Assembly (NCBI GenBank): GCA_964588985.1
Contig: CAZPQW010000002.1
Coordinates: forward strand, 96,001-160,000
DNA: 64,000 nucleotides
Origin: an uncultured Solirubrobacteraceae bacterium
GTDB taxonomy: Bacteria; Actinomycetota; Thermoleophilia; Solirubrobacterales; Solirubrobacteraceae
Reading direction: 5' to 3'
Shown: positions 17,756-34,234 of the stretch, piece after piece
Layout: the number at the start of each line of letters is the position of its first letter
Numbering within the stretch: the first letter of the stretch is position 1
Made by a program: the position numbers and the translations under genes
Notes under the pieces: model-generated
Database searches by the model: none
Seen by the model: the letters and a program-made list of their open reading frames with translations, nothing else
What the model was told of the DNA's origin: nothing

Positions 17756-18184
17756 ATGTCCGCCATAGCCGCACACCCACGCGCCGAGCGAGTTCGCTCG
17801 CTCCCCACCCTCTCGCAGGCCGCGAGATTCATCGGCCTAGATACAGGCGGGATGAGCCGCGCCGTCCGGGCTCTCGGCGTCGAGCCGCAGCGATGGGGCC
17901 GCCGCGACAAGCACCTGGAAGTCGCTCAGGTGCTCCAGATCGCCAGGGTCGCGCAGCGCGCGTCGCTGGAGGAGGTCGCCGGCAGCATCCTGGAATGGAC
18001 TGAACAGAACCACCCGGACGCACTGGAGCAGACGACCGCCGAGATCGATGCGTTCTTCGCCGCACTTCCTCCACCGACGGCGACGCCAGCCGATGAGTTC
18101 GTTGCCGAGCTACGGGCAGCGCTACCGCCGCGATGGGCGGACAAGGCCGAGAAGATCTGGCGCGCTCACGCTGGCAGCGTGTAG
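17756..18184 (+). CDS. Hypothetical protein with N-terminal HTH-like segment
   Basis: TLSQAARFIGLDTGGMSRAV; TG-n-TAGCCT -10 six nt before the ATG. Confidence 0.6.
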   Translation: MSAIAAHPRAERVRSLPTLSQAARFIGLDTGGMSRAVRALGVEPQRWGRRDKHLEVAQVLQIARVAQRASLEEVAGSILEWTEQNHPDALEQTTAEIDAFFAALPPPTATPADEFVAELRAALPPRWADKAEKIWRAHAGSV

Positions 18185-18357
18185 TAGTCGCCGCGATACC
18201 CCTCTCGCTGGCGACCGCGTTTGAAGCCGGAGCCGGCCAGCTCGGTTGCGCTCAGCGCGACGCCGCTGTCCACGACGAGACCGACGCGGCCCGCCTGCAC
18301 GGTCCTGCGCCGGGCTGAAAGGCGCGGGCCGGGCGCCGCACCCCGACCCCTGGCGGG

Positions 18358-18957
18358 CTACGACCCCTCGTGTGCCCCCGGCGCCCACAGCGGCTCGCCG
18401 TGCGCGCCCTGCTCGGCCTGCGCGTTGGCGGCGCGGCTGAGGATGAAGAACAGGTCGGAGAGCCGGTTGAGGTAGCGCACGACCTCCGGGTTGACCTCCT
18501 CGCCGACGGCGATGGTGCGTCGCTCCGCGCGCCGGCAGACGGTGCGGCAGACGTGCAGGTGCGCGCCCGCGGGGCTGCCCCCGGGGATCACGAACGAGCG
18601 CAGCGGCTCGAGGCCCGCGTTGACCTCGTCGCATGCCTGCTCGAGCCACGCGGTGTACTCACCGCTCACGCGCAGGCGCTCGCGCGCGCCCTCCTCGCCC
18701 GCCGCGGGCGGCGAGTCGGGAACGGAAAGGTCGGCTCCGAGGTCGAGCAGATCGTTCTGCACGCGCCGCAGCCAGCCGGCGAACTTCTCCGACAATCCGG
18801 GTGCCAGCAGCGCAATGCCGATCGTGGCGTTGAGCTCGTCGACGGTGCCGTAGGCCTCGACGCGCGGGTGCAACTTGGAGACACGGCTCATGTCCCCGAG
18901 ATGGGTCTCCCCGCCGTCCCCGAGCTTTGTATAGATGCGAGTCAAGTTGACGGTCAT
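18358..18957 (-). CDS. pduO: PduO-type ATP:cob(I)alamin adenosyltransferase
   Basis: RIYTKLGDGGET, YGTVDELN, RTVCRRAER, YLNRLSDLFF. Confidence 0.95.
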   Translation of the reverse strand: MTVNLTRIYTKLGDGGETHLGDMSRVSKLHPRVEAYGTVDELNATIGIALLAPGLSEKFAGWLRRVQNDLLDLGADLSVPDSPPAAGEEGARERLRVSGEYTAWLEQACDEVNAGLEPLRSFVIPGGSPAGAHLHVCRTVCRRAERRTIAVGEEVNPEVVRYLNRLSDLFFILSRAANAQAEQGAHGEPLWAPGAHEGS

Positions 18958-19022
18958 CTTCCGTCGAGTCTCGCACACCGAGCCAACGCTCATCCGTTGG
19001 ATCGGATACGTTCTCGCACCTC

Positions 19023-20153
19023 ATGCGGATCGGTGTTCCGAAGGAGGCCGCGGCAGGCGAGCATCGTGTGGCGCTCGTGCCGGAGGTCGTCAGCAAGCTG
19101 GGGGCCAAGGGCCTCGACGTCGTCGTGCAGAGCGGCGCGGGCGCGGACGCCCTGTTGACCGACGCGGCGTACACGGCCGCGGGCGCGAAGGTCACCTCGG
19201 ACCCGGCGGAGGTGTGGGGCTGCGACGTGGTCGTGACGATCGCGCCCCCGGACCCCGAGGCGATTCGCGGCCTCGGCTCGGGCTCGATCCTTATCGGCTT
19301 TCTAGCCCCGCTCACGAGCCCGCGGACGACGCGCGCGCTCGCCGACGCGAAGGCGACCGCGTTCGCGATGGAGGCGATCCCGCGGATTTCGCGCGCGCAG
19401 GCGATGGACGCGCTGTCCTCGCAGGCGAACGTCGCGGGCTACCGCGCGGCGCTGCTCGGCGCGGAGGAGATGGGCCGCTTCTACCCGATGCTGATGACCG
19501 CGGCGGGCACGATCCCGCCGGCGAAGGTGCTCGTGCTGGGCGTCGGCGTCGCCGGACTGCAGGCGCTCGCGACAGCCAAGCGGCTGGGTGCGCGCACGAC
19601 CGGCTACGACGTTCGCCCGGAGGTCGCGGAGCAGGTCGAATCGCTCGGTGCGCAGTGGCTCGACCTGGGCATCGAGGCGAGCGGCGAGGGCGGCTACGCA
19701 CGCGAGCTGACCGAGCAGGAGCGCGCACAGCAGCAGCAGGCGCTGACCGACGCGATCAAGGGCTTCGACGTGGTGATCACCACCGCGCTCGTGCCGGGTC
19801 GCCCGGCGCCGAGGCTCGTCACCGCGGAGGCCGTCGAAGGGATGAAGCCGGGCTCTGTGATCGTCGACCTCGCGGGCGAGGCTGGCGGCAACTGCGAGCT
19901 GACCGAGCCGGGGCAGACGACGGTCAAACACGACGTCAAGATCGTCTCGCCGCTGAACCTTCCCGCCGGGATGGCCGAGCACTCCTCGCAGCTGTTCGCG
20001 CGCAACGTCCAGGCGCTGCTCGACCTGTTCGTGGGCGAGGACGGCGCGCTGCAGCTCGACTTCGACGACGAGATCGTCAAGGGCGCGTGCGTGGTGCGCG
20101 ACGGCGAGATCGTCCATCCTGGAGCCAAAGCCGCCGTGGAGGCCGCCCAATGA
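19023..20153 (+). CDS. pntAA: NAD(P) transhydrogenase alpha subunit part 1
   Basis: MRIGVPKE, PRISRAQAMDALSSQ, GVGVAGLQA. Confidence 0.95.
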   Translation: MRIGVPKEAAAGEHRVALVPEVVSKLGAKGLDVVVQSGAGADALLTDAAYTAAGAKVTSDPAEVWGCDVVVTIAPPDPEAIRGLGSGSILIGFLAPLTSPRTTRALADAKATAFAMEAIPRISRAQAMDALSSQANVAGYRAALLGAEEMGRFYPMLMTAAGTIPPAKVLVLGVGVAGLQALATAKRLGARTTGYDVRPEVAEQVESLGAQWLDLGIEASGEGGYARELTEQERAQQQQALTDAIKGFDVVITTALVPGRPAPRLVTAEAVEGMKPGSVIVDLAGEAGGNCELTEPGQTTVKHDVKIVSPLNLPAGMAEHSSQLFARNVQALLDLFVGEDGALQLDFDDEIVKGACVVRDGEIVHPGAKAAVEAAQ

Positions 20154-20473
20154 TCCTTGCGAGCACCCTCACGACCAACCTCGCGATCCTCGTGCTCGCC
20201 GGCTTCATCGGCTTCGTGGTGATCTCGAAGGTTCCGAACACGCTGCACACGCCGCTGATGAGCGGCACGAACGCGATCCACGGGATCGTGCTGCTCGGCG
20301 GCCTGCTCGTGGTGGGCCTGTCGGGCAACGGCGCGTTCAACAAGGTGATCCTCGTGATCGCGATCGCGTTCGGCACGATCAACGTCGTCGGCGGCTTCCT
20401 CGTGACCGACCGCATGCTGGAGATGTTCAAGGCCAAGCCGAAATCCTCAAGCGACGAGGAGAAGAAGTCGTGA
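20150..20473 (+). CDS. pntAB: NAD(P) transhydrogenase alpha subunit part 2
   Basis: VPNTLHTPLMSGTNAIHG, NVVGGFLVTDRMLEMF. Confidence 0.95.
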   Translation: MILASTLTTNLAILVLAGFIGFVVISKVPNTLHTPLMSGTNAIHGIVLLGGLLVVGLSGNGAFNKVILVIAIAFGTINVVGGFLVTDRMLEMFKAKPKSSSDEEKKS

Positions 20474-21897
20474 GCAGCCTGCCGCTCGCCACGTCCTTCC
20501 TGCAGGACCAGAGCTTCCTCGATGTTCTTTATATCGTCGCGTTCGCGCTGTTCATCCAGGGCCTGCGCGGGCTCTCGGGGCCGACCACCGCCGTGCGGGG
20601 CAACCGCATCGCCGCGGTCGGCATGGCGATTGCGGTGATTGCGACACTGCTGAACGTCAACGAGGGCAACTGGGCCCTGATCGTGATCGGCGTGGCGCTC
20701 GGCACCGCGGTGGGCGTCCCGGCGGCGCGCCAGGTGAAGATGACCGCGATGCCGCAGATGGTGGCGCTGTTCAACGGCGTGGGCGGCGGCGCTGTGTTCC
20801 TGATCTCGTGGTCGGAGTTCCGTCTCTCCGACGGCTTCACGGGCACCCCCACCTACATCGCGATCTTCTCGCTGTTCGCGGCGATCGTCGGCTCGGTGTC
20901 GTTCTGGGGATCGAACATCGCGTTCGGCAAGCTCCAGGAAATCATCCCCGGCAAGCCGATCACGCTCGGCTCCTCGCAGCAGTTCGTAAACGCGCTGCTG
21001 CTGCTCGTCGCGGTCGGCTGCGGCGTGGCGATCGCCGCCGGCGAACACTCCGAAGGCCTCTTCATCCTGCTGCTGCTCTCGGCCGCCCTGCTCGGCAACG
21101 CGGTCGTGTTCCCGATCGGCGGCGCCGACATGCCGGTCGTGATCTCGCTGCTGAACGCCTTCACCGGCCTCTCGGCGGCGGCCACGGGAATCGCGCTGAA
21201 CAACCCCGCGTTGATCGTCGCGGGCATGATCGTCGGCGCCTCCGGCTCGATCCTCACGAACCTGATGGCGGTCGCGATGAACCGCTCGATCCCCGCGATC
21301 ATCGCCGGCGGCTTCGGCGGCGGCGGCGCTGTCGAGGGCGCCAGCGGGGCGGGCGAGCACGCGGGCACGGTCCGTTCCACGACCGCCTCCGACGCCGCGA
21401 TCCAACTCGCCTACGCCAATCGCGTCGTGATCGTCCCCGGGTACGGGATGGCCGTTGCGCAGGCCCAGCACGCGGTCAGGGAGCTGACCAAGGAGCTCGA
21501 AAAACGCCAGGTCGAGGTCAGCTACGCGATCCACCCGGTCGCGGGACGCATGCCCGGACACATGAACGTGCTGCTGGCCGAGGCCGACGTGCCGTATGAC
21601 CAGCTGAAGGAGATGGACGAGGCGAACCCCGAGTTCTCGCGCACGGATGTCTCGCTTGTGATCGGCGCGAACGACGTGACGAACCCGGCGGCGAAGAACA
21701 CGCCGTCCTCGCCGATCTACGGGATGCCGATCCTCGAGGTCTCAGACAGCCACTCGGTGATCGTGATCAAGCGCTCGATGAACCCCGGCTTCGCGGGCAT
21801 CGAAAACGAGCTGTACTACGACCCGAAGACCGAGATGCTGTTCGGGGACGCGAAGTCGGCGGTGAGCGAGATCACCGCCGAGCTCGCCCACATCTAG
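20470..21897 (+). CDS. pntB: NAD(P) transhydrogenase beta subunit
   Basis: MTAMPQMVALFNG, GGADMPVVISLLN, HPVAGRMPGHMNVLLAEA. Confidence 0.96.
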   Translation: MSSLPLATSFLQDQSFLDVLYIVAFALFIQGLRGLSGPTTAVRGNRIAAVGMAIAVIATLLNVNEGNWALIVIGVALGTAVGVPAARQVKMTAMPQMVALFNGVGGGAVFLISWSEFRLSDGFTGTPTYIAIFSLFAAIVGSVSFWGSNIAFGKLQEIIPGKPITLGSSQQFVNALLLLVAVGCGVAIAAGEHSEGLFILLLLSAALLGNAVVFPIGGADMPVVISLLNAFTGLSAAATGIALNNPALIVAGMIVGASGSILTNLMAVAMNRSIPAIIAGGFGGGGAVEGASGAGEHAGTVRSTTASDAAIQLAYANRVVIVPGYGMAVAQAQHAVRELTKELEKRQVEVSYAIHPVAGRMPGHMNVLLAEADVPYDQLKEMDEANPEFSRTDVSLVIGANDVTNPAAKNTPSSPIYGMPILEVSDSHSVIVIKRSMNPGFAGIENELYYDPKTEMLFGDAKSAVSEITAELAHI

Positions 21898-21930
21898 AGC
21901 GCGCCCACGCGCTCTGCGAGACTGCGCTGC

Positions 21931-23715
21931 GTGATCGAGCGCAGTCTGGCACTCGCGGCTCTGGCCGAAGACGAGTTCGACGTGGTGGTCGTCGGCGGCG
22001 GCATCACCGGCGCTGGCGTTGCGCTGGACGCGGCCACGCGCGGCTACAGCGTCGCGCTGCTCGAGCGCGCGGACTTCGCGTCGGGAACCTCCAGCCGCTC
22101 GAGCAAGCTCGTCCACGGCGGGCTTCGCTACCTGCAGAACTTCGACCTCGGGCTCGTCCGCGAGGCGCTGCTGGAGCGCCAGCTGATGGTGCAGCTCGCG
22201 CCCCATCTCGTGCGTCCGCTGCCGCTGGTGGTGCCCGCGTTCGAGGGCGCGCACCCCGACCGGCTGGTGGGCGTGGGCCTGAACCTCTACGACGTGATGT
22301 CGCGAGAGCGCCTGCGCGGGCGGCGCGGACGGCGCGTGCGCGCCGAGCGGGCACAGGGCGGTCCGGCGGTGACCGCGGCGCAGGCCGAAGAGGGCGAGTC
22401 CTGGAGCCCTGAGCGCCACCGGGTGATCTCCGGGGAGGAGGTGCTCGAGCTCTTGCCCGCGCTCGCCGCGCGCGAGCCGACCAGCGGCTACCTGTTCTAC
22501 GACTGCCAGACCGACGACGTGCGCCTCGTGCTGACGGTGCTCGGCGAGGCGGAGCGCTTCGGCGCGGTGTGCGCGAACCGGGTGGACGTGACCGGGTTGC
22601 TCGAGCGCGACGGGCGTGCAGCGGGGGTGCAGGTGACGGAGCTCGAGAGCGGCGGGCGCTTCGACGTGCGCGCGGCGAACGTGGTCAACGCGACCGGCGT
22701 GTGGGCCGACCAGCTGCGCCCGCGGGAGCTGCACGAGGAGGCCGAGTTGCCGCGCATCCGGCCCAGCCGCGGCACGCACGTGACGCTCAGGCACGAGGAC
22801 CTCCCGCTGATCGGCGGCGCGATCGTCCCCGCCGGCGGCGGGCGCTCGATCTTCGCGCTGCCGTGGCTCGGGCACACGCTCGTGGGCACCACCGACAACG
22901 ACTACGAGGAGGGCGGCTCGCTCGAGCACATCCGCCCGTCGAACGACGACGTCGACTACCTGCTCGACGCGGTCAACGAGTTCTTCGCCACCGACTTCGG
23001 CCCCGGCGACCTCACGGGTGCGTTCGCGGGCGTGAGGCCGCTGATCTCCACGGGCGACCCGAAGAAGTCGGTCGACATCTCGCGCAAGGCGGAGCTTTAC
23101 GAGACCTCCTCGGGGATGATCACGATCACCGGCGGCAAGCTCACCACGTGGCGGCGGATGGCGAAGATGACCGTCGACAGGCTCGTCGAGCGCGACGCCC
23201 GCGACGCGCCCTGCCGCACGCACGAGATCCCGCTCGGCCAGACGATCGCCGCCGACGAGCTGCCGCGCGTTGAGGGCGTGCCCGAGCATTCCTACCGCGC
23301 GCTCGCCGCCCGCTACGGCCACGCAGCCCACGACGTGCTCGCCCTCGCAGCCGAGCGCGGCGAACTGGCCCAACCCATCGTCGCGGGCCGCCCCGACCTG
23401 CTGGCCGAGGTGGCGCTCGCCGCGCGCCACGAGCAGGCGCGCTCGATCGGCGACGTGCTGCTCAGGCGCACCCGCCTGGGGCTGCTGGCGGCGCGGGAGC
23501 TGACCGTGCCGGCGCCGGCCGCCGGGTCGAGTCCGGTCGAGCTGGTCGGGGATGTCCTCGCGCACGAGCTCGGCTGGGACGAGGAGCGGCTGCGCCTCGA
23601 GCTGGCCCGCTTCGCGGACGAGGCGCTCGCGGAGGGAATCGTCGCCGAGGTCGATCGTCCTGAGGCCCCCGTCGAGGAGGACACCGCCGCCGTGACGCCG
23701 GACGCCGAGTGGTGA
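21931..23715 (+). CDS. glpD: FAD-dependent glycerol-3-phosphate dehydrogenase
   Basis: GGGITGAG, GTSSRSSKLVHGGLRYL, GGKLTTWRRMA. Confidence 0.93.
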   Translation: MIERSLALAALAEDEFDVVVVGGGITGAGVALDAATRGYSVALLERADFASGTSSRSSKLVHGGLRYLQNFDLGLVREALLERQLMVQLAPHLVRPLPLVVPAFEGAHPDRLVGVGLNLYDVMSRERLRGRRGRRVRAERAQGGPAVTAAQAEEGESWSPERHRVISGEEVLELLPALAAREPTSGYLFYDCQTDDVRLVLTVLGEAERFGAVCANRVDVTGLLERDGRAAGVQVTELESGGRFDVRAANVVNATGVWADQLRPRELHEEAELPRIRPSRGTHVTLRHEDLPLIGGAIVPAGGGRSIFALPWLGHTLVGTTDNDYEEGGSLEHIRPSNDDVDYLLDAVNEFFATDFGPGDLTGAFAGVRPLISTGDPKKSVDISRKAELYETSSGMITITGGKLTTWRRMAKMTVDRLVERDARDAPCRTHEIPLGQTIAADELPRVEGVPEHSYRALAARYGHAAHDVLALAAERGELAQPIVAGRPDLLAEVALAARHEQARSIGDVLLRRTRLGLLAARELTVPAPAAGSSPVELVGDVLAHELGWDEERLRLELARFADEALAEGIVAEVDRPEAPVEEDTAAVTPDAEW

Positions 23716-24632
23716 GGGCGCCCGAGCACCGCGTGCGCGCGGCCGACCTCACGCTCGAGCTGGGATCGCGGCCGTGGCTGATGGGCATCGTGAACGCCTC
23801 GCCGGACTCGTTCAGCGACGGCGGGCTGCACGCGAGCCTCGACGCGCAGAGCAAGCTCGCGGCGGAGCTGCTTGCCGCGGGTGCCGACATCCTCGACATC
23901 GGCGGCGAGTCCGCATCGACGGGTCGCCCGCCGGTCGAGATCGAAGAGGAGATCGAGCGCGTGGCGCCGCTGGTCGAGCGCGTCGCGGGCGAGCTCGGCG
24001 CGGTCGTGTCGGTGGACACGTACAAGCCGGACGTGGCGAGCGCCGCGATCGCCGCGGGGGCTCGGATCGTCAACGACGTGAGCGGCCTGCTCGACCCGCG
24101 GCTCGCGGACGTTTGCGCGCGGACGGGCGCGGCGCTAGTGGTGATGCACACCCGCGCGGCGCCGCGCGAACGGCTGCAGGACCCAGACCTCTACGCGGAC
24201 GTGACCGGCGAGGTGCTCGCCTTCCTCCAGCAGCGCGTGGCGCTCGCCTGCTCGCGCGGCGTCGATCCCGAGCAGCTGATCCTCGACCCCGGGCCGGACT
24301 TCGCGAAGACGCCCGCGCAGACGATCGAGCTGCTGCGCCACACAGCCCGCCTGCACGAGCTCGGACGCCCGCTGCTGATGGCGATCTCGCGCAAGGACTT
24401 CGTCGGCGCGCTCACGCGCAGAGCGCCGCGCGACCGCCTCGCGGGGACGCTCGCGGCGCTCGCATTCGGGGTCGAGCGGGGCGCGCACATCTTCCGCGTG
24501 CACGACGTCGCGGCCGCCGCGGACTTCCTCACCGTCCGCTCCGCGCTCGCCGGTGAGCTGCAGCCGAGCAGGGATCTCGCGCTGACCGAGGAAATCCGAC
24601 ACGAGCCTTCGCCGCGCGAGACGCTACGCTGA
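23709..24632 (+). CDS. folP: Dihydropteroate synthase
   Basis: MGIVNASPDSFSDGG, DIGGES, SRKDF, FRVHDV. Confidence 0.93.
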   Translation: MVRAPEHRVRAADLTLELGSRPWLMGIVNASPDSFSDGGLHASLDAQSKLAAELLAAGADILDIGGESASTGRPPVEIEEEIERVAPLVERVAGELGAVVSVDTYKPDVASAAIAAGARIVNDVSGLLDPRLADVCARTGAALVVMHTRAAPRERLQDPDLYADVTGEVLAFLQQRVALACSRGVDPEQLILDPGPDFAKTPAQTIELLRHTARLHELGRPLLMAISRKDFVGALTRRAPRDRLAGTLAALAFGVERGAHIFRVHDVAAAADFLTVRSALAGELQPSRDLALTEEIRHEPSPRETLR

Positions 24633-24710
24633 GGATCAACCAACGGGTGCCCGCCGCTGTCCAACGCGACGGGACGCCAACCGCCCCTCCACAACGAAAG
24701 AAGGAACACC

Positions 24711-26060
24711 ATGGCAGTACTCGAGCGCTCCGAGCTGGAGGCAAGTCCTCTCGCCGACCTGCACACGATCGCGGACCAGATCGGTCTCGACGGGTTCAGA
24801 CGACTGCGCAAGGCGGACCTGATCGACGCGATCCTCGGAGAGGAGAGCCCCAGCTCCAACGGAGCTGAGAAGAGCTCCGACAACGACGACGGCGAGGGCG
24901 AGGCGCGCCCGCGCAGACGTCGCTCGCCACGCACACGCCGCCCGGCCGGCGCGGCCGCGAAGGCGCAGGACGACGAGGCCGACGAGAAGTCCGACGTCGA
25001 CAGCAGCCCGGATAAGGACGAAAGCCCTTCGCGTACATCGACGGGCGCAGCGCGCCGCGGCCGTGGCGGCAGGAGCGCGCGGGGCGGCGCCGGGAGGTCT
25101 TCCTCCACGCGCTCCACTTCCTCGGGCGATGACGCCGACAGCGACGCGGGCGACTCGGAGAGCACCGGCCGGATCGCGGCCGGCGTGGTCGAGGTGCTGG
25201 GCAACGGCTCTGCGTTCCTACGAGTCGACCCGCCGGAGCCCTCGGACGACGATGTGTACATCTCCGCCGCGCAGGTGCGCCGCTGCGAGCTGGTGAGCGG
25301 CGACCGCGTGACCGGCCCGGTGCGCACGCCCCGTCGCTCGGAGCGCTACCCGTCGCTGGTCCGCATCGACACGATCAACGGCACATCCGCCGATGAGGTC
25401 TCCGACGGCGGCCGCTATGACGATCTGCCCGTGAGCTGGCCGAGCGAGTGGCTCAAACTGGACTCCAAGGACGCGACGCTCGAGGCGATCGACTGGCTCA
25501 CGCCGCTGGGGCTCGGCTCGCGCGCGGTGATCGTGGGTGTTCGCCACGTCGGCAAGAGCGAGACGTTGAGGCGCCTGCTCGACGCCCTCGGCGGCCGCGA
25601 GGACCTCGACGTCAGTCTCGTGCTCGCTGGCGCCCGGCCGGAGGAGATCTCCCAGTGGCAGGAGGGCCCGCTCGCTCCGGTGGCGTCGCTCAGCTTCGCC
25701 GCCTCCTCGGACTCGCAGGGGCAGGCGATCGAGCGCGCGATCGACGCTGCCAAGCGCGTCGCTGCACGCGGCGGCAAAGCGGTTGTGTTGATCGACAGCC
25801 TCGACGGGCTCAACCCGCACGCCGCGCGCAAGGCGCTCGCCGCCGCGCGCAACCTGCGCGAGGGCGGCTCGCTGACGGTGATCGCCACGGCATCCCAGCC
25901 GCTCGGAGGGGAGACGACGGTGATCGCGCTCAAGTCGACCGGCCGCGTGCCGATCGTCGACCTGGTCAACAGCGGCACGCTCAGGCCCGAGCTGCTCGTC
26001 GGCGATGACGGCGCCGAGGCGATCGCCAAGGCGCGGACCGACGCCATAGAGGCTTCCTAG
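24711..26060 (+). CDS. Rho termination-factor homolog with degenerate ATPase domain
   Basis: Rho N-terminal helix (LRKADLIDAIL), RNA-binding OB domain (AFLR...DDVYISAAQVRR...GDRVTG), AARNLREGGSLTVIATA; catalytic motifs altered. Confidence 0.85.
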   Translation: MAVLERSELEASPLADLHTIADQIGLDGFRRLRKADLIDAILGEESPSSNGAEKSSDNDDGEGEARPRRRRSPRTRRPAGAAAKAQDDEADEKSDVDSSPDKDESPSRTSTGAARRGRGGRSARGGAGRSSSTRSTSSGDDADSDAGDSESTGRIAAGVVEVLGNGSAFLRVDPPEPSDDDVYISAAQVRRCELVSGDRVTGPVRTPRRSERYPSLVRIDTINGTSADEVSDGGRYDDLPVSWPSEWLKLDSKDATLEAIDWLTPLGLGSRAVIVGVRHVGKSETLRRLLDALGGREDLDVSLVLAGARPEEISQWQEGPLAPVASLSFAASSDSQGQAIERAIDAAKRVAARGGKAVVLIDSLDGLNPHAARKALAAARNLREGGSLTVIATASQPLGGETTVIALKSTGRVPIVDLVNSGTLRPELLVGDDGAEAIAKARTDAIEAS

Positions 26061-26102
26061 AGAAAGAGATGTGTGCGAGCGGCGGGTTCGTCCCTCTGCT
26101 CG

Positions 26103-26564
26103 TCAGCCCCTATATGCGACGCGGCCCCATGAGGGCTCGGGGGCGAGCTCGATCGGCTCATGGCTGCGTTCGGGCTGGACGTAGGCGAACGTGCCGCTCT
26201 GTTCGTCGAAGCTGACGGTCAGCTCGCCCTCCTTGACGCGCTGGTCGAGCCACGCGCCGCGGAACACGAGACGCCGCAGCCAGTGCACGAGCGAGCGCTC
26301 GGCCGGGCCGACGAGCTCGGGCCAGCAGTCGTTGACGTGCTCGCCGAGGGCCGACGCGGGCTCTGAGATCTCGCCGTTGACGGCGAGGTTGACGAGGTCT
26401 TCGAGCTCCTCCTCGCCGAGCCGCCCGCCGACGAATCCGAGCTTCAGCGCCGCCTGCTCGCAGCGCTCGGAGAAATCGGTCTCGTTGAAGGTGAAGCGCA
26501 GCTCGCCGTATTCGAGCACGAAGTGCTCACCGGAGTCGTAGTTTTCGCGTCGCGCGGTTTCCAT
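26103..26564 (-). CDS. Hypothetical protein
   Basis: 153-aa ORF with globular composition filling the gap between rho-like and permease genes. Confidence 0.7.
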   Translation of the reverse strand: METARRENYDSGEHFVLEYGELRFTFNETDFSERCEQAALKLGFVGGRLGEEELEDLVNLAVNGEISEPASALGEHVNDCWPELVGPAERSLVHWLRRLVFRGAWLDQRVKEGELTVSFDEQSGTFAYVQPERSHEPIELAPEPSWGRVAYRG

Positions 26565-26696
26565 AGTGTTGAATCGGAGCTGTCGGCAGTGCAGTAGTGC
26601 CGCGGCTCGTCGGGATCATACGGTGCGTTCCTGCTTTGGCGGCTGCGGTGCACGGGATTTTGCAGGGTGGGTGGGGATCGATAGCCTCCCGAGCCG

Positions 26697-28628
26697 ATGG
26701 CGCGCCTCTCAGAGCACGGACTGCGGCGATCCGTTGGCGTTCCCGGCCTTTTCGCCACCGCCTACGGCAACGTCGGCTCCTCGATCTACTACGCACTTGG
26801 GCTCGTCGCGGGCTACGCGCTCGGGCTCACGCCGGTCGTGTTCATGTTCGCGGGCGGACTGTTCGTGCTCACCGCGAAGACCTACGCGGAGGGCGCTTCG
26901 ATGTTCCCCGAGGCCGGAGGCTCCTCGTCGTTCGCGCGCCACGCGTTCAACGACGTGGTCTCGTTCTTCGCCGGCTGGGCGTTGAGCCTCGACTACATCA
27001 TCACGATCGCGATCTCCGCGTTCTTCGTGCCGCACTACCTCGGCGCGTTCTTCCCGAGCCTCACCCACAACCCCGGCGACATCATCGGCGGGATCGTCAC
27101 GATCGTGCTGCTCGCCGCGCTCAACATCCGCGGGCTGGGAGAGTCGGCGAAGCTCAACCTGTTCCTCGCGGTCGCCGACCTGTGCACCCAGGTGCTCCTC
27201 GTCGGTCTAGGAGCCGTGCTGGTGCTGAACCCGTCGCTGCTCGTCAACCAGGTGCACCTCGGCACGGCTCCCTCGTGGCACAACCTGATCTTCGCGCTGT
27301 CGGTCGCGATGGTCGCCTACACGGGGATCGAGACCGTGTCGAACATGGCCGAGGAGTCGCGCGACCCTGGCCGGGACATCCCCAAGGCGGTCAACCTCGT
27401 GCTGATCGCCGTGCTCGGCGTGTACGCGGGGATCTCGGTCGTGGCGCTCTCCGCGCTGCCGGTCATCCACCACGGCATCGGCTACAGCCCTCAGCTGCTG
27501 GAAACGTACAGCCATCCCGGCTACGCCACCGCGCTCGGCGGCCACTTCGAAAACGACCCCGTGCTGGGGATCATCACGCGCCTCGGCTTGCACGGCACGG
27601 TGCTGACGATCGCCAAAGACTACGTCGGGGTGCTCGCCGCGACGATCCTGTTCATCGCGACGAACGCCGGCCTGATCGGGATCTCGCGGCTGTCGTGGTC
27701 GCTGTCGGAGCACCGCCAGCTGCCGAGCATCTTCTCCAACCTGCACCCGAAGTTCCGCACCCCGTGGTTCACGATCGTGTTCTTCTCGATCCTCGCGGGG
27801 CTGCTGATCCTGCCGGGCGAAACGACGCTGCTGGGCAACCTGTACTCGTTCGGCGCGATGCTGTCGTTCACGACCGCGCACGTGTCGGTGGTCGCGCTGC
27901 GCTTCTCCCAGCCCGACCGCGAGCGCCCCTACCGGATGCCGTGGAACGTGATGATCCGCGGCCGCTCGATCCCGCTGACGGCGGTGCTCGGCGCGATCGG
28001 CACGTTCGCAGCGTGGTGCGCCGTCGTCGCGCTGCACGGCGAGGCGCGCACGATCGGCATCCCCTGGATGATCCTGGGGATGGGCGGCTACTACGTCTAT
28101 CGCAAGCGACAGGGCCTCAACCTCCGCGACTCCTACCGCATACCGCGCCCCGAACGCCCCCCAGACTTCGAGGAGCTCGAGTACCGCACGGCGCTGGTGC
28201 CGATCTTCGGCGACGACGTGAGCGCATCGGCGCTGCGCGGCGCGGCGAAGCTGATCGGCGAAGAGGGGGTGGTGTATGCGATCTACGTGCTGCCCGTGCC
28301 GAGCCAGCTCTCCCTGGAGGCCGGCCTGGAGGAGGAGGAGGCGCACGGCCGCTCGGTGCTCGAGAGCGCGCGCATCCAGGCCAAACGCGCGGGGATCAAG
28401 ATCCACACCGGCCTGATACGTACTCGCAACCCCGGATCCGCGCTCGTTGAGGAAGCCGAACGGGTCGGATCGGACGTGATCTACTGGTCGACGATCCATG
28501 CGCCCGCGGGCGAGCAGCGGATCGGCCCGACCGCGGCGTACCTGCTGAGCCGGCGCCCGTGCCGGGTGATCATCGAGACGCAGAACCGCCCCGACGGCAA
28601 GACAGACCGCGTCGCGGTGCCCGCCTGA
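26697..28628 (+). CDS. APC family amino acid permease with C-terminal universal stress protein domain
   Basis: GNVGSSIYYALG, YAEG...PEAGG, AYTGIETVSNMAEE; USP-like end IGPTAAYLL..RPCRVII. Confidence 0.9.
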   Translation: MARLSEHGLRRSVGVPGLFATAYGNVGSSIYYALGLVAGYALGLTPVVFMFAGGLFVLTAKTYAEGASMFPEAGGSSSFARHAFNDVVSFFAGWALSLDYIITIAISAFFVPHYLGAFFPSLTHNPGDIIGGIVTIVLLAALNIRGLGESAKLNLFLAVADLCTQVLLVGLGAVLVLNPSLLVNQVHLGTAPSWHNLIFALSVAMVAYTGIETVSNMAEESRDPGRDIPKAVNLVLIAVLGVYAGISVVALSALPVIHHGIGYSPQLLETYSHPGYATALGGHFENDPVLGIITRLGLHGTVLTIAKDYVGVLAATILFIATNAGLIGISRLSWSLSEHRQLPSIFSNLHPKFRTPWFTIVFFSILAGLLILPGETTLLGNLYSFGAMLSFTTAHVSVVALRFSQPDRERPYRMPWNVMIRGRSIPLTAVLGAIGTFAAWCAVVALHGEARTIGIPWMILGMGGYYVYRKRQGLNLRDSYRIPRPERPPDFEELEYRTALVPIFGDDVSASALRGAAKLIGEEGVVYAIYVLPVPSQLSLEAGLEEEEAHGRSVLESARIQAKRAGIKIHTGLIRTRNPGSALVEEAERVGSDVIYWSTIHAPAGEQRIGPTAAYLLSRRPCRVIIETQNRPDGKTDRVAVPA

Positions 28629-28643
28629 GCCGCGCCCGGGACG

Positions 28644-29564
28644 CTAGGAGAGCGCCGCCCGCAGCGCGGGCTCGAGCTGGGCGTGGCGGAACTCGTATCC
28701 GAGCACGAGCGCCTTGGCTGGGACCGCGCGCGCGCCGGTGGTGACGATCTCTGCCATCTCGCCGTAGAGCGCCCGCAGCGCGAAGCCCGGCACGGGCAGG
28801 AGCGACGGGCGGTGAAGAGCCCTGCCGAGCGCGTGCGAGAAGGCCGCGTTCGTGACCGGTTCGGGCGCGGTCGCGTTGATCGGGCCGCTCCAGCGCTCGT
28901 CCTCGATCGCCGTGAGCATCATCCCGACGACGTCCTCGGCGTGGATCCACGACATGTACTGGCGCCCGCCCGCCACCGGGCCGCCGACGCCGAGGCGAAA
29001 GGGCGTGAGCATCTTGCCGAGCGCGCCGCCCGCGGCGTCGAGCACGATGCCGGTGCGCACCTGCACCACGCGGACGCCCAGCGAGCCCGCCCTGGCCGCC
29101 TCGGCCTCCCACTCGACACACACCTGCGCGAGGAAGTCCGCGCCGGGCGGCGCGTCCTCGTCGAGCGGCTCCTCGCCGTGCGCGCCGTAGTAGCCGATCG
29201 CCGAGGAGCTGACGAGTGTGCGTGGGCGGTGCGCGTCCTCGACCGCGGCCAGTCCGGCGAGCAGGTTGCGCGTGCCGGTCACGCGGCTCTCGCGGATCGC
29301 GCGCTTCGCCTCGGCGCTCCAGCGCTGCGCCACAGGCGCTCCCGCGAGGTGCACCACCGCGTCGCGGCCGGCGAGCGCCTCGACCGGCGCGTGCTCTGAC
29401 ATCGGGTCCCAGGCGAGCGCCGTGACCTCTCCCAGCTTCGCCCGCGCGCGGTCCGGCTCGCGAGTCAGAACCGTGACATCGGCGCCCTGTGCGAGCAGCT
29501 CCGCGACCAGCTGCGGGCCGATCAACCCCGTCGCTCCGGTCACGACCACCCGCGGCGCGCTCAA
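28644..29564 (-). CDS. TIGR01777 family NAD-dependent epimerase/oxidoreductase
   Basis: TGATGLIG, SSAIGYYG, GGRQYMSWIH, NATAPEPV. Confidence 0.92.
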   Translation of the reverse strand: MSAPRVVVTGATGLIGPQLVAELLAQGADVTVLTREPDRARAKLGEVTALAWDPMSEHAPVEALAGRDAVVHLAGAPVAQRWSAEAKRAIRESRVTGTRNLLAGLAAVEDAHRPRTLVSSSAIGYYGAHGEEPLDEDAPPGADFLAQVCVEWEAEAARAGSLGVRVVQVRTGIVLDAAGGALGKMLTPFRLGVGGPVAGGRQYMSWIHAEDVVGMMLTAIEDERWSGPINATAPEPVTNAAFSHALGRALHRPSLLPVPGFALRALYGEMAEIVTTGARAVPAKALVLGYEFRHAQLEPALRAALS

Positions 29565-29577
29565 CGCGTTCAGCTCC

Positions 29578-31080
29578 TCATGCGCGGCCGTCGCCGGTGC
29601 TCGCGCCGGCCGGACCTACGCTCATGGTCTCCGTGTCGCCCTGGGCGAAGCCCACCTCGTGTCCCGCGAGCGCGGTGCCCGCCTTGCGCGCCTGGTCGGC
29701 GACCGCGGCCGCCACCGCGGGCGCCACCTCCCTGTTGAACACCGACGGGATGATGTAGTCCTCGTGCAGCTCGCTCTCGGAGACGATCGCGGCGATCGCC
29801 TGCGCGGCGGCCATCTTCATCGGCTCGGTGATCTGCGGCGCGCGCACGTCGAGCGCGCCGCGGAAGATCCCCGGGAAGCACAGCACGTTGTTGATCTGGT
29901 TGGGGTAGTCCGAGCGCCCGGTCGCCATGATCCTCACGTACGGACCGGCCTCCTCGGGGTTGATCTCGGGGGTCGGGTTGGCCATCGCGAAGACCATCGC
30001 GTCCTTGTTCATGCGCGCGAGCGACTCGGGGGGCAGAACTCGGGCGCCGGAGAGGCCGATCACGAGGTCGGCGCCGTCGATCACGTCCGCGGGCTTGCCC
30101 GCGCGGCAGTCGGGGTTCGTCGACTCCGCGTACCAGCGCTTGATCGGGGTCATCGTGTCGCTCAGGTAGTCCTCGCGCTGGACGTGCAGGGCGCCCTGCG
30201 AGTCGGCGCCGACGATGTGCGTCACGCCGGCCGCGAGCATGATCTTCGTGACCGCCACGCCGGCCGCGCCGAGGCCGATGACGAGCACGCGCAGGTCGGC
30301 GAGGTTGCGTCCGGTGAGCTTCACCGCGTTCAGCAGCGCGGCCATCACGACCACCGCGGTCCCGTGCTGGTCGTCGTGGAAGACGGGGATGTCGAGCTCG
30401 TCGATCAGGCGCTGCTCGATCTCGAAGCAGCGCGGCGCGGAGATGTCCTCGAGGTTGATACCGCCGAAGCCCGGCGCGAGCAGCTTGACGGTCCGCACGA
30501 TCTCGTCGGGGTCCTTCGTGTCGAGGCAGATCGGGAACGCGTCAACGTTGGCGAACTCCTTGAAGAGGCAGCACTTGCCCTCCATCACCGGCATCGCCGC
30601 GCGCGGGCCGATGTCGCCGAGGCCGAGCACCGCGGTGCCGTCGGAGATCACCGCGACCGTGTTGCGCTTGATCGTGTACTGGAACGCCTTGTCCGGGTCG
30701 TCGTGGATCGCGTGGCACACGCGCGCCACACCGGGGGTGTAGGCCATCGAGAGGTCGTCGCGGGTCTTCAGGGGGTGCTTGTTGTGCTGCTCGATCTTGC
30801 CGCCCACGTGCAGCAGGAACGTGCGGTCGGTGGTGTCGACCACCTCGGCGCCGTCGATCGCGCCGATCGCGCCGAGGATTTGCTCCCAGTGCGCGCGCCC
30901 GGAGGCGTCGACGACGATGTCGCGCAGGCTGTGGGCTCCGTGGACTTCGACCAGGTCGACGGCGGCGACGATGCCGCCCGCCTCGCCGATCGCGGTCGTC
31001 ACCCGCCCGAGGATGCCCGAGCTGTCCTCCAGCTTGACGCGGATGTTCAGGCGATACTGCGCGCTTGGGGTGGCGCTCAC
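29578..31080 (-). CDS. NAD-dependent malic enzyme with N-terminal ACT domain
   Basis: LSMAYTPGVA, DGTAVLGLGDIG, FHDDQHGTA, NQINNVLCFPGIFRG. Confidence 0.93.
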   Translation of the reverse strand: MSATPSAQYRLNIRVKLEDSSGILGRVTTAIGEAGGIVAAVDLVEVHGAHSLRDIVVDASGRAHWEQILGAIGAIDGAEVVDTTDRTFLLHVGGKIEQHNKHPLKTRDDLSMAYTPGVARVCHAIHDDPDKAFQYTIKRNTVAVISDGTAVLGLGDIGPRAAMPVMEGKCCLFKEFANVDAFPICLDTKDPDEIVRTVKLLAPGFGGINLEDISAPRCFEIEQRLIDELDIPVFHDDQHGTAVVVMAALLNAVKLTGRNLADLRVLVIGLGAAGVAVTKIMLAAGVTHIVGADSQGALHVQREDYLSDTMTPIKRWYAESTNPDCRAGKPADVIDGADLVIGLSGARVLPPESLARMNKDAMVFAMANPTPEINPEEAGPYVRIMATGRSDYPNQINNVLCFPGIFRGALDVRAPQITEPMKMAAAQAIAAIVSESELHEDYIIPSVFNREVAPAVAAAVADQARKAGTALAGHEVGFAQGDTETMSVGPAGASTGDGRA

Positions 31081-31133
31081 GGACTCCTGCTCCCTCAGTT
31101 GTTGGCGGCGGGGATGTTAGGAGGTATACGCCG

Positions 31134-31147
31134 CGAGCACTTGTTCG
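31134..31147. promoter_or_regulatory. Near-consensus LexA (SOS) box upstream of polA
   Basis: CGAGC-ACTT-GTTCG, one mismatch to CGAAC-N4-GTTCG. Confidence 0.5.
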
Positions 31148-31202
31148 GGTGCCACGCCTCTCCAGGGCGACGGTCGGCGGCTCCTCGTAGAGTGCTCAGG
31201 CG

Positions 31203-33794
31203 ATGGAGGACAAGCGCCTGTTCCTGATCGACGGCCCGAGCCTCGTGTACCGGGCGTTCTTTGCGCTGCCAGAGTCGATCGCGACATCGACGGGCGTGCC
31301 CACGAACGCGATCTTCGGGTTCGCTTCGATGCTCGTGAAGATCGTCACCGAGTACGGCGTGTGTCCGACGGTGGTCGCGTGGGACGCCGGCACCTCGGGT
31401 CGCACCGAGTTGTTTCCCGAATACAAGGCCCAGCGCCAGTCGCGCCCCGACCTGCTCAAGCAGCAGTGGCCGGCGATGGAACCGCTCGTCGACGCGTTCG
31501 GCTACCGCAACGTGAGGGTCGAGGGCTACGAGGCGGACGACGTGATCGCCTCGCTCGCGGAGCGCGCGCTGAAGGCCGACCCCCCGGTGCCGGTGATGAT
31601 CGTCACCGGCGACCGCGACGCCTTCCAGCTGATCGACGGGCGGGGCCTCGTGAAGGTGATGGCGACCGCGCGCGGGATCACCGACACGAAGATCTACGAC
31701 CGCCAGGCGGTGATCGACCGCTACGGCATCCCACCGGAGCTGATCCCCGACTTCTACGGGCTGAAGGGCGACACCTCCGACAACATCCCCGGCGTCCCCG
31801 GCATCGGCGACAAGACCGCGAGCGAGCTGATCCAGAGCTTCGGCACGCTCGAGCAGGTGCTCGCGAGCGTCGAGGAGATCAAAGGCGCCAAGCGCAAACA
31901 GAACCTCCTCGAGTACGCGGAGAACGCACGCGTGTCCAAGAGCCTCGCGACCGTCCAGCGCGACGTGGCGGTCGACGTCGACATCGCGCTCGAGGCCGCG
32001 CAGGAGCCCGACCGCTCGCGCGTGCGTGAGTTCTTCCGCGAGTACGAGTTGCGCGACCCGCTGCGGCGGCTGGAGGAGGCGCTCGGCGACCCCGAGGTGG
32101 CGGCGCCCGTGCCGGCCGCGCAGGTGACGCTCAAGGCGCGGGTCAGAGCCGGAGCGCCGAAGGACATCGCGCGTCTCGGCGCCGCGACCGGCGAGCTGTG
32201 CGTGGTGGTCCGCGCGAGCGAGGCCCCCGAGGGCGAGCTGTTCGCCGACGGGCCAGCGTGGCGCTTCGCGGCGGCGGCCGAGGGGGAGGTGCTGGTGGGG
32301 GAGTGCGCCGGTCCGGAGGAGGTCGTCGCGGCGTGCGGCGATCGTCCCGTTGTCGCACACGACGCGAAGGCGCTTCGCACGGTCCCGCCGTCGCTTGCGC
32401 ACGACACGCTGCTGGGCGCCTACCTGCTCGAGCCCGCCAGACGTGGCTACCCGTTCGCGGAGCTGTGCGAGGAGCGCGGCATGGTCAGCGACGAGAAGGA
32501 CCCGGTCGCGGCCGAGGCGATCCTGCTGGGGGCGCTCGCGACGTGGCAGCGCGAGCAGATCGCCGAGCGGGGCCTGGAGCCGCTGATGCGCGAGATCGAG
32601 CTGCCGCTTGTGGCGGTGCTGCGCGAGATGGAGCTGCTCGGGGTGCGGCTCAACGTCGAGCGGCTCGGGGAGATCACCGGGCGCGTGCGCACGGAGATCG
32701 ACGGCCTCGAACGCGACATCTTCAAGCTGGCCGAAACGGAGTTCCTGATCTCCTCGCCCCAGCAGCTCGGGGAGATCCTGTTCGAGAAGCTCGGCCTGTC
32801 GCGCAAGCGCCGCGGCAAGACCGGCTTCTCCACCGACGCGCGCGTGCTGCAGGCGATCCGCTCAGAGCACGAGATCGTGCCGAAGATCGAGCGCTGGCGC
32901 GAGCTCTCCACGCTGATCAAGACCTACCTCGACGTGCTGCCCCAGCTCGTGGACGAGCGCTCGCGCATCCACACCACGTTCCTGCAGGCGGTCGCGCAGA
33001 CCGGGCGCCTGTCGAGCACCAACCCCAACATGCAGAACGTCCCCATCCGCACTCCACTCGGACGCGAGATCCGCGGCTGCTTCGAGGCCGAGGAGGGGAT
33101 GTCGCTGATCTCCGCCGACTACTCGCAGATCGAGCTGCGCGTGCTCGCGCACGCGGCCGGCGAGGACGTGCTGATGGAGATCTTCGCCCGCGGCGAGGAC
33201 GTGCACACGGCGACAGCGTCGCGCGTGTTCGGTGTGGAGGCGAAGGACATCGACCCGGGGATGCGCTCGAAGGCGAAGATGATCAACTACGGGATCGTCT
33301 ACGGCCTCTCCGACTTCGGCCTCGCCGATCGCCTGAACATCCCGCGCGCGGAGGCGAAGGAGTTCATCGACGCCTACCTCGAGCGCTTCCCCGCGGTCGC
33401 GCGCTTCATGGCGGAGACGATCGAGCGCGCGAAGGAGACCGGCGACGTGACGACGCTGTGGGGCCGCCGGCGCCAGATCCCCGAGATCCGAGCCCGCAAC
33501 TATCAGGTGCGCACACTCGGCGAGCGCCTCGCTGTGAACACCGTCATCCAGGGCACCGCCGCGGACATCATCAAGCTCGCGATGGTCAACTGCCACCGCG
33601 CGCTCGCGGAGTCGACGCTTCAGACGAAGCTGCTGCTGACGATTCACGACGAGCTGCTGTTCGAAGGCCCGCCGGAGGAGACGGACGCCGCACGCGAGCT
33701 GATCGAGCGCGAGATGTGCGGCGTGTGGGGGGATCGCGAGCCGCCGATGGCTGTCGACATCGGCGCGGGGCGTACCTGGCTGGAGGCGAAGTGA
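31203..33794 (+). CDS. polA: DNA polymerase I
   Basis: 5'-3' exonuclease (EADDVI, GDTSDNIPGVPGIG); polymerase motifs TGRLSSTNPN, ADYSQIELR, IHDELL. Confidence 0.97.
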   Translation: MEDKRLFLIDGPSLVYRAFFALPESIATSTGVPTNAIFGFASMLVKIVTEYGVCPTVVAWDAGTSGRTELFPEYKAQRQSRPDLLKQQWPAMEPLVDAFGYRNVRVEGYEADDVIASLAERALKADPPVPVMIVTGDRDAFQLIDGRGLVKVMATARGITDTKIYDRQAVIDRYGIPPELIPDFYGLKGDTSDNIPGVPGIGDKTASELIQSFGTLEQVLASVEEIKGAKRKQNLLEYAENARVSKSLATVQRDVAVDVDIALEAAQEPDRSRVREFFREYELRDPLRRLEEALGDPEVAAPVPAAQVTLKARVRAGAPKDIARLGAATGELCVVVRASEAPEGELFADGPAWRFAAAAEGEVLVGECAGPEEVVAACGDRPVVAHDAKALRTVPPSLAHDTLLGAYLLEPARRGYPFAELCEERGMVSDEKDPVAAEAILLGALATWQREQIAERGLEPLMREIELPLVAVLREMELLGVRLNVERLGEITGRVRTEIDGLERDIFKLAETEFLISSPQQLGEILFEKLGLSRKRRGKTGFSTDARVLQAIRSEHEIVPKIERWRELSTLIKTYLDVLPQLVDERSRIHTTFLQAVAQTGRLSSTNPNMQNVPIRTPLGREIRGCFEAEEGMSLISADYSQIELRVLAHAAGEDVLMEIFARGEDVHTATASRVFGVEAKDIDPGMRSKAKMINYGIVYGLSDFGLADRLNIPRAEAKEFIDAYLERFPAVARFMAETIERAKETGDVTTLWGRRRQIPEIRARNYQVRTLGERLAVNTVIQGTAADIIKLAMVNCHRALAESTLQTKLLLTIHDELLFEGPPEETDAARELIEREMCGVWGDREPPMAVDIGAGRTWLEAK

Positions 33795-34234
33795 GCCGCG
33801 GTCTGGCTGTGCTGCTGGCGGTCGCCGCGGGCGGCTTCGTCGGGATGCAGGCGCCGATCAACGCGCGCCTCGGCCGTCAGATCGGCAGCCTGCAGGCGGC
33901 CACCGTGTCGTTCCTCGTGGGCCTCGTCGCGCTGCTGCTGGTCGCGGGGATCTCAAGCGGCGGGCTGGGGAGCATCGCCCACGCTCCACGGGCGCCGTGG
34001 TGGGCGCTGATCGGCGGGCTGCTCGGCGCGTTCTTCGTCGTCGTAGCGCTGCTCACCGTGCGCACGCTCGGAGCGAGCGGCCTCACCGCGATCGTCGTCG
34101 CCGGTCAGCTCGCCGTGGCCGTCGCGATCGACCGCTTCGGCCTGTTCGGCATCGCCAAGCAGCACATCGCCGCGCCGCGGGCGATCGGGTTGGTGCTGCT
34201 GTTGGTGGGGGTTGTGCTGGTGGTGCGCAAATGA
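33791..34234 (+). CDS. DMT family (YdcZ-like) transporter
   Basis: QAPINARLG, WWALIGGLLGA, GQL...IDRFGLFG. Confidence 0.88.
   Translation: MSRGLAVLLAVAAGGFVGMQAPINARLGRQIGSLQAATVSFLVGLVALLLVAGISSGGLGSIAHAPRAPWWALIGGLLGAFFVVVALLTVRTLGASGLTAIVVAGQLAVAVAIDRFGLFGIAKQHIAAPRAIGLVLLLVGVVLVVRK

Follow-up and report, generated by a model that had tools for sequence, protein, structure and literature searches.

Transcription termination factor Rho is usually viewed as a near-universal and often essential ATP-driven motor, and bacterial lineages are scored simply as possessing or lacking it. Walker motifs A and B of the canonical protein form ATP pockets at the interfaces between subunits, and its Q- and R-loops constitute the secondary RNA site that drives translocation (PMC4499133). 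According to the same source, a single substitution of a glutamate (E211A in Escherichia coli Rho, E386A in the Mycobacterium tuberculosis protein) leaves ATP binding, RNA binding, and oligomerization in place with hydrolysis lost, and a hydrolysis-competent site is required for disrupting duplexes and elongation complexes. The survey of Moreira et al. (2024; PMC11347177) reported that only 2 of 464 Actinomycetota, Baekduia soli together with Conexibacter woesei, are without a functional Rho and carry "Rho-like" sequences, and that large insertions and deletions are absent from the ATPase domain of functional Rho factors. Here we analyzed a stretch of 64,000 nucleotides from an uncultured Solirubrobacteraceae bacterium (contig CAZPQW010000002.1, positions 96,001 to 160,000; hereafter the window), which encodes a Rho-derived protein of 449 amino acids. 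The best reading of this protein is a Rho descendant that has been converted into a non-motor protein and is selectively maintained.

The window protein is a Rho homolog by descent and belongs to the same superfamily and fold. It shares with canonical Rho (the E. coli protein and the families TIGR00767 and NF006886) the domain order of Rho_N, OB fold, and RecA-like C-terminal domain, together with the primary RNA-site residues, the P-loop, the Walker B motif, and, as predicted here, a head-to-tail subunit interface. Between the Rho_N and OB domains it carries a disordered insertion of the actinobacterial type. Unlike canonical Rho, it is without the catalytic Glu, the Arg finger, the Q-loop, and the R-loop, and its hidden Markov model scores fall far under the curated cutoffs: 166.3 bits against NF006886 (cutoff, 315) and 161.6 bits against TIGR00767 (cutoff, 509.45), the two NCBIfam Rho equivalogs, and 23 bits against the ATPase family PF00006 of Pfam (cutoff, 29.5). 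A TIGR00767-type Rho model run against the six-frame translated genome reached 138.6 bits and aligned over model positions 3 to 265 only. Rho chains in the PDB match the protein at an E value of 1.6e-37, with an alignment that covers query residues 148 to 367 and then 365 to 415 and skips about 20 target residues after the Walker B region.

E. coli Rho, as annotated in the K-12 genome (NC_000913), served as the numbering reference for motif positions. A first-pass annotation, made from the DNA alone, had described an open reading frame (ORF) free of frameshifts behind a strong ribosome-binding site, with the RNA-binding domains intact and the motor dismantled at five motifs. The open frame and the Shine-Dalgarno-like hexamer are as described, and all five motif statements hold in alignments against E. 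coli Rho. APPKAGKT corresponds to GVRHVGKS, DERPEE to GARPEE, and SGTRKEEL to SGTLRPEL; 11 of the 33 residues of E. coli span 268-300 are left, the 22 missing ones including the Q-loop (DSLDGLNPHAARK, residues 362-374 of the window protein), and the 34 residues of span 312-345 are reduced to 21, a loss of 13 that removes the R-loop. Past E. coli position 345, the C terminus runs for about 46 residues, compared with 75. The RNA-binding domains are likewise intact, as both Rho_N and Rho_RNA_bind score above their cutoffs and the OB domain displays the motifs GSAFLR, DDVYIS, and ERYPSL. The description of a dismantled motor stood only in part: catalysis and RNA threading appear to be gone, whereas the P-loop and the Walker B Asp are invariant and the nucleotide pocket is retained. 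Since GVRHVGKS still satisfies the G-x4-G-K-[ST] pattern, the Walker A motif has been altered and not destroyed. Coordinates of all features are collected in Table 1.

Table 1. Features of the rho-derived gene in the window (aa, amino acid residues; pLDDT, predicted local distance difference test)
Feature	Residues (aa)	Position in window	Strand	Remarks
Rho-derived ORF		24711..26060	+	449 aa; ATG start, no internal stop; coordinates include stop codon
Shine-Dalgarno-like hexamer GAAGGA		24700-24705	+	Read from sequence; 5 nt before ATG
Rho_N domain	8-43	24732..24839	+	PF07498, 33.4 bits (cutoff, 24.9); helical, pLDDT 84-96
Disordered linker	48-153	24852..25169	+	Rich in Arg, Asp, Glu, Ser, and Gly
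RPRRRR patch of linker	66-71			
RGG-like run of linker	115-129			
OB-fold primary RNA-binding domain	157-227	25179..25391	+	Rho_RNA_bind (PF07497), 77 bits (cutoff, 27)
Walker A/P-loop GVRHVGKS	276-283	25536..25559	+	Fits G-x4-G-K-[ST]
GARPEE	307-312	25629..25646	+	Catalytic Glu replaced by Ala; Arg-Pro-Glu-Glu retained
Walker B VVLIDS, then directly the 22-residue Q-loop deletion site		25782..25832	+	Asp retained
Shortened R-loop region SQPLGGETT	395-403	25893..25919	+	
SGTLRPEL	421-428	25971..25994	+	Leu at Arg-finger position

More than 231 stretches of DNA encode relatives of this protein, and the homolog was extracted from 109 of the 110 loci that were fetched. Three rows were left out: L028 and L115 because the C-terminal domain is split, and L029 because the contig stops within the homolog. 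The resulting alignment holds 97 rows that are 47 to 100% identical to the window protein, together with 9 that are more distant; 4 of the 97 come from genomes fetched twice, leaving 93 distinct sequences. The equivalents of the primary RNA-site residues F64, R66, D78, Y80, E108, and R109 are present in 93/93, as are those of G183 and K184 in the P-loop, D265 in Walker B, and the stretch R212-P213-E214-E215. Position 185 is Thr in 63 sequences and Ser in 30, and the F62 equivalent is Ser in all 93. The losses are equally uniform. No sequence has Glu at the catalytic position 211 (Val in 51, Ala in 36, Ser in 5, and Thr in 1) or Arg at finger position 366 (Leu in 75, Val in 10, Ile in 5, and Met in 3), and the D210 equivalent is Gly in 92/93. 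The Q-loop span measures 11 residues in every sequence, the R-loop span 21 residues in 89 and 20 in 4, and the columns of T286, T323, and K326 are gaps in all 97 rows. Residues G399, G400, E401, T402, and T403 of the window protein are each at least 90% conserved. Judged from these alignments, the pattern of motif loss, which all 93 distinct orthologs share, is far beyond chance. This picture was extended by searching 1.84 billion cluster representatives with a profile: 99 of the best 150 matches cover the motif region, of which 82 are without at least one of Lys184, Glu211, Arg366, and the Q-loop and 41 carry the exact pattern of the window protein. Intermediate states, such as loss of the Lys alone, occur among the best 150, and the 17 fully canonical representatives start at rank 89.

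The E211A and E386A mutants bear the same Glu-to-Ala change, at the same position, as the window protein, and by analogy with the E211A precedent (PMC4499133) we infer that the protein may bind nucleotide without turning it over. Unlike these mutants, the window protein is also without an Arg finger and without either channel loop, and selection has maintained it throughout its order. The combination that marks a pseudo-ATPase, a P-loop kept and a catalytic carboxylate lost, is found in the window protein. A natural parallel is the alpha subunit of the F1-ATPase, a Rho-related RecA-fold ring subunit with a P-loop and an interface nucleotide but no catalytic carboxylate, in which the nucleotide is structural or regulatory. 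The F1 alpha subunit, however, works in a hetero-hexamer beside a catalytic beta subunit, and no catalytic partner was found for the window protein.

Structure prediction with AlphaFold2, run with a 67-sequence alignment, gave high confidence for the OB and C-terminal domains (pLDDT, 90 to 97) and low confidence for residues 48-153 (pLDDT, <50). The best Foldseek matches of the model are all Rho chains (E value, ∼1e-23; template modeling score, 0.5 to 0.6). Self-association was modeled with three copies of residues 154-449 and scored 0.60, compared with 0.00 for the best of three controls; at least 48% of contacts are shared between runs, and the pLDDT of the partner is at least 84. In calibration, the mark applied to this score was reached by 20 of 30 one-chain-pair structures and by 1 of 23 single-chain structures. 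The predicted interface is head to tail, with the P-loop and GARPE of one copy facing residues 370-380, 397-404, and 420-425 of the next. Residues 397-404 include GGETT, the conserved stretch standing in place of the R-loop, and residues 420-425 belong to the former finger motif, so that this interface would explain the conservation of both R-P-E-E and GGETT. The model supports self-association of the window protein, although the score may reflect likeness to known structures, because Rho hexamers have already been solved.

Selection on the family was estimated as Nei-Gojobori omega over 30 disjoint nearest-neighbor pairs. Median omega is 0.08 for the OB domain, 0.14 for Rho_N, 0.19 for the C-terminal domain, and 0.52 for the linker, and for the C-terminal domain it is under 1 in all 30 pairs and lower than for the linker in 29/30. 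The same regional order, at higher values, was recovered from all 4,328 pairs, which are not independent. Comparison of the canonical sister families with one another gives 85% identity for the C-terminal domain and 77% for the OB domain, whereas between the degenerate families the two figures are 35% and 52%. By these measures the hierarchy of constraint is inverted relative to canonical Rho, and the remnant motor domain would therefore be conserved for something less demanding than motor work. Within the window's family, the C-terminal domain is under purifying selection. The window protein is not a case of strain decay.

The genome that contains the window is 95.9% complete in 48 contigs, and a six-frame search of it returned a single Rho RNA-binding domain (PF07497), the one in the ORF described here. 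A second Rho was considered and rejected: the remaining weak TIGR00767 matches are three ATP-synt_ab proteins, which score 248 to 305 bits as such, two of them adjacent on contig C26 near the expected location of the atp operon. The window ORF is accordingly the only Rho homolog found in its genome, and no canonical rho was found. The same holds more widely. Among 41 genus and order genomes, the Rho RNA-binding domain is present in 38 and a Rho above the curated cutoff in none, including five single-contig assemblies (G005, G023, G025, G031, and G039). Scores of the Rho model are graded, from 114 to 154 bits over only the first ∼265 model positions in the window's genus to 175 to 308 bits in other families of the order, some of which span the full model length. 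The first-pass annotation had proposed that, if this were the only Rho of the genome, the lineage has repurposed Rho, naming an intact ortholog in relatives as evidence to the contrary; no such ortholog appeared among the 41 genomes, and the proposal is supported at the comparative level. Its suggestion of a dominant-negative anti-terminator has little plausibility, as the searches turned up no canonical Rho that the window protein could poison. Its other suggestions, an RNA chaperone or an RNA polymerase-binding factor, are guesses.

A class-level sample of 151 genomes, each at least 85% complete, revealed three states within the Thermoleophilia. Canonical Rho, in complete copies scoring 566 to 667 bits, is encoded in the sister families f8 (26/26), f10 (26/26), and f11 (19/21). 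In the window's order, PF07497 is present in 25/25 genomes, none over the Rho cutoff, and only degenerate forms occur. The Rho RNA-binding domain was not found in f7 (0/26), f9 (0/24), f12 (0/1), or f13 (0/1), which suggests that outright loss of Rho also occurs in this class. With Rho canonical in some families, degenerate in others, and absent from still others, the class is well suited to studies of the dismantling of an essential machine.

A maximum likelihood tree of 27 rows, with E. coli as the sole outgroup and SH-aLRT support, placed the Rho-like proteins of the order into one group (support, 99) next to canonical Thermoleophilia Rho. The branches of the order's proteins are long (0.3 to 1.5, compared with 0.03 to 0.09 for canonical Thermoleophilia Rho), and long-branch attraction could inflate this grouping. 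Lesions differ by family. The window's family, f1, retains the P-loop Lys and has lost Asp-Glu, the finger, and both loops; f3, its sister in the tree (support, 99), is similar and has lost the Lys and more of the C terminus in addition. Family f4 retains D-E-R-P-E-E, has Arg or Ala in place of the Lys, and shows a partly deleted Q-loop, while f2 lacks the Lys and the Glu and has a full-length Q-loop span. Nearly all motifs are lost in f6, and f5 has lost the aromatic residues of the OB domain as well. From the tree and these lesions together, the P-loop Lys was therefore lost at least twice.

Gene order around the rho-like gene is conserved as pntB, glpD, folP, the rho-like gene, and a convergent gene for a 153-amino-acid protein, with folP in 74 and the convergent gene in 70 of 80 related loci, and families f2, f3, f4, and f5 share this order. 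The position at folP differs from that of canonical rho, which in sister family f8 lies directly upstream of rpmE, DUF1385, and prmC. In the window's genome, rpmE, DUF1385, and prfA are located on contig C26 without rho upstream, and no rho remnant was detected upstream of rpmE (best tblastn E value, 0.014). The absence of rho or a remnant at rpmE and the presence of a rho-like gene at folP therefore point to one of two histories, relocation of the gene or survival of a paralog. The ∼2.5 kb upstream of rpmE (locus L135, 5300-7800) contain ORFs of 174, 106, and 198 amino acids with high GC content at third codon positions and no Pfam family.

Conservation of such a stripped-down Rho across a whole order implies that it probably performs a job that needs no motor. 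We consider the likely form of the protein to be a ring-forming, nucleotide-binding, hydrolysis-dead Rho derivative that binds RNA on its crown and does not thread it. It would retain a Rho ring-like head-to-tail assembly and, to judge from motif conservation, would still bind nucleotide at the subunit interface without hydrolyzing ATP at a useful rate, so that the nucleotide site would be structural or regulatory. RNA would be bound on the N-terminal crown alone, with no threading or translocation. Our committed guess at its cellular role is that it binds C/U-rich RNA, untranslated or nascent, in a static and multivalent manner; as a speculative last step, it may label or retain transcripts for other machinery or exert an effect on RNA polymerase that involves no translocation.

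Several observations weigh against this reading. The P-loop Lys has been lost in other families of the order (f2, f3, f4, and f6), and f5 is also without the OB aromatic residues; the function shared across the order may therefore depend on neither a bound nucleotide nor an RNA cleft of the canonical kind, and these sequence differences between families weaken the case for a single order-wide mechanism. Constraint on the C-terminal domain is weaker than that on the OB domain in 29/30 pairs and far weaker than in canonical Rho. An Arg or Lys immediately follows the lost finger in 88/93 orthologs and would offer a possible shifted finger; with E214 and E215 invariant, weak hydrolysis could in principle persist. 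Lastly, the homolog is split over two frames in 7 of 109 loci (5 in the linker and 2, L028 and L115, in the C-terminal domain), which may be assembly errors or real pseudogenes.

The alternative that survives best, although we regard it as distinctly unlikely, is a departure from RNA work altogether, with the protein acting as a nucleotide-sensing scaffold or a linker-driven condensate former and the OB domain conserved for a new ligand. The linker is consistent with such a role. Across 63 orthologs, it keeps an Arg-rich polyampholyte character (medians of 17% Arg, 23% Asp plus Glu, and 1% hydrophobic residues; length, 63 to 197) and a recurring RPRRRR patch, while its sequence is not conserved (27% pairwise identity), and the insertion regions of Rho have been predicted as disordered and phase-separating (PMC11347177). 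Family f5, moreover, keeps the gene and its synteny without the OB aromatic residues. The residues that in E. coli Rho form the cleft for pyrimidine-rich single-stranded RNA are, however, invariant in the window's family with the exception of F62, and the simplest interpretation is that RNA binding has been retained.

A still-working Rho motor or terminator, relying on non-canonical catalytic residues (the Arg or Lys past the finger or Glu214/215) and other RNA contacts in the channel, is very improbable in our view. Such a motor would account for the invariance of the P-loop, the Walker B Asp, and R212-P-E-E, for the Arg or Lys in 88/93, for the predicted Rho-like ring interface, and for the JGI annotation of many members as "transcription termination factor Rho". 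It is opposed by the deletion of both RNA-translocating loops in 93/93 orthologs, by the inverted order of constraint, and by curated model scores at a third to a half of their cutoffs. The Glu-to-Ala change alone ends hydrolysis in E. coli and M. tuberculosis Rho (PMC4499133), and functional Rho was described as free of large ATPase-domain indels in a survey of 2,730 genomes (PMC11347177).

We give almost no credence to a canonical rho that was missed through an assembly gap or bin incompleteness, with the window gene as an accessory paralog. The genome does fall short of completeness, the slot upstream of rpmE that holds rho in f8 contains only small ORFs, and one genome of the same genus, G016 (80% complete in 300 contigs), carries two canonical-looking short-form Rho fragments of 367 amino acids each with motor motifs intact. 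These fragments come from contigs only 2.4 and 2.8 kb long (C46 and C267; loci L136 and L137), are 92% identical to each other, adjoin an FtsX-type permease on each contig, and show 46 to 52% identity to other Rho proteins, equally far from E. coli and Thermoleophilia Rho; neither contig had a tblastx match to the window's genome. We judged them not to be an intact ortholog of the genus but probably bin contamination from another phylum. The missed-rho explanation is opposed further by the 0/41 count, single-contig assemblies included, and by the lack of a remnant at rpmE. An equally slight chance is left to a functionless relic heading for loss, a reading that agrees with the tolerance of Rho loss in f7 and f9, the graded lesions across families, and the split frames, but is already contradicted by the selection data (omega of 0.19 and 0.08 in the C-terminal and OB domains, the former below 1 in every pair), by frames open in 102/109 loci at 47 to 100% identity, by key positions invariant in 93/93 with identical indel lengths, and by conserved order-wide synteny and a confident fold.

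Returning to the non-motor Rho descendant, its bolder form is speculative and rather unlikely, if less so than the alternatives above: the whole order would have turned Rho into a motor-less RNA-sensing ring that perhaps rides on or traps RNA polymerase once its crown has captured untranslated RNA, while other factors would bring about release. As part of the same rather unlikely proposal, the motor would have been inactivated independently in several families, with the Lys lost at least twice and f4 keeping the Glu that is lost in f1 and f3. If this were true, the ancestor of the order already depended on a motor-independent Rho function, and the order would amount to a separation-of-function experiment made by nature, relevant to the long-running debate over whether Rho termination is driven by translocation or is allosteric and polymerase bound.

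The window protein points to a third state beyond presence and absence: a selectively maintained Rho with its RNA-recognition crown and, putatively, its nucleotide pocket, without catalysis or threading, as the only Rho homolog found in an abundant soil order of the Actinomycetota. It offers natural material for asking what crown and ring do without the motor, with cultured relatives available in Conexibacter, Baekduia, and Paraconexibacter, and prompts one to ask by what means transcription is ended in these high-GC bacteria. That two cultured relatives have Rho-like genes is already in print. Conexibacter woesei and Baekduia soli both belong to the Solirubrobacterales, and we take their sequences to be probably of the same family as the window protein. 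The main text of PMC11347177 treats the ATPase domain as missing from this pair and contains no account of a conserved degenerate RecA domain, a retained P-loop, selection, or an order-wide range, and our search of the literature on Thermoleophilia or Solirubrobacterales and Rho found nothing beyond that report. The order-wide pattern, the degenerate RecA domain with its nucleotide pocket, the purifying selection, and the family-specific lesions thus appear to be undescribed.

Other Rho-derived proteins differ from this family in what they have kept. Cyanobacterial DUF4912 "Rho-like" proteins and plant RHON1 carry Rho_N (PMC13613805, 2026) and resemble the window protein as Rho-derived domains in lineages without canonical Rho; as described in that article, they possess Rho_N only, with neither an OB nor a RecA domain. 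The short-form paralog_Rho2 family (NF041509) matches the window protein weakly (125 bits; cutoff, 628). Short-form Rho is without Rho_N, and the example in G016 has its motor motifs intact, unlike the window protein. Database names for the family vary: in contrast to the JGI name given above, NCBI mostly uses "Rho termination factor N-terminal domain-containing protein" and names one member Rho. Annotation is thus inconsistent and overstates function, a problem to which the family draws attention.

The flanks of the rho-like gene (18935-23715 and 26697-33794) hold ordinary housekeeping genes, namely, a pntA-like gene with four transmembrane segments, pntB transhydrogenase, a glpD-type FAD oxidoreductase, folP, an amino acid permease-Usp fusion, an epimerase, malic enzyme, and polA. 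Simple scans of window positions 18000 to 34000 (16 kb) gave no excess of transcription signals, with 0 sigma-70-like promoters found and 0.3 expected from shuffled sequence, and 2 U-tract terminators found where 3.5 were expected. These nulls fit a high-GC actinobacterium whose transcription signals lie outside such scans. A bidirectional terminator in the 42-bp gap downstream of the rho-like gene was considered and rejected, as the local hairpin is of ordinary energy (z = -0.32) and 75 of 200 shuffles fold equally well. Hfq was not found in the window's genome and NusG is present (189 bits); neither result discriminates between roles for the protein.

On the far side of this gap, the convergent gene (26103-26564, minus strand) encodes an acidic protein of 153 amino acids with no Pfam or NCBIfam family and no Foldseek match in the PDB (best E value, 0.56), for which the AlphaFold2 model is confident (pLDDT, 87). 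The gene adjoins the rho-like gene in families f1 to f5. A lineage-specific partner of the Rho-like protein was considered and rejected, as the 153-residue protein is also encoded, far from rho, in 26/26 genomes of f10, which has canonical Rho, and in 24/24 of f9. It is encoded elsewhere in the genome in 13/26 genomes of f7 too, and was not found in f8 (0/26) or f11 (0/21). Its identity is 82 to 98% across related loci and 66 to 72% across the families of the order, exceeding the conservation of the Rho-like protein.

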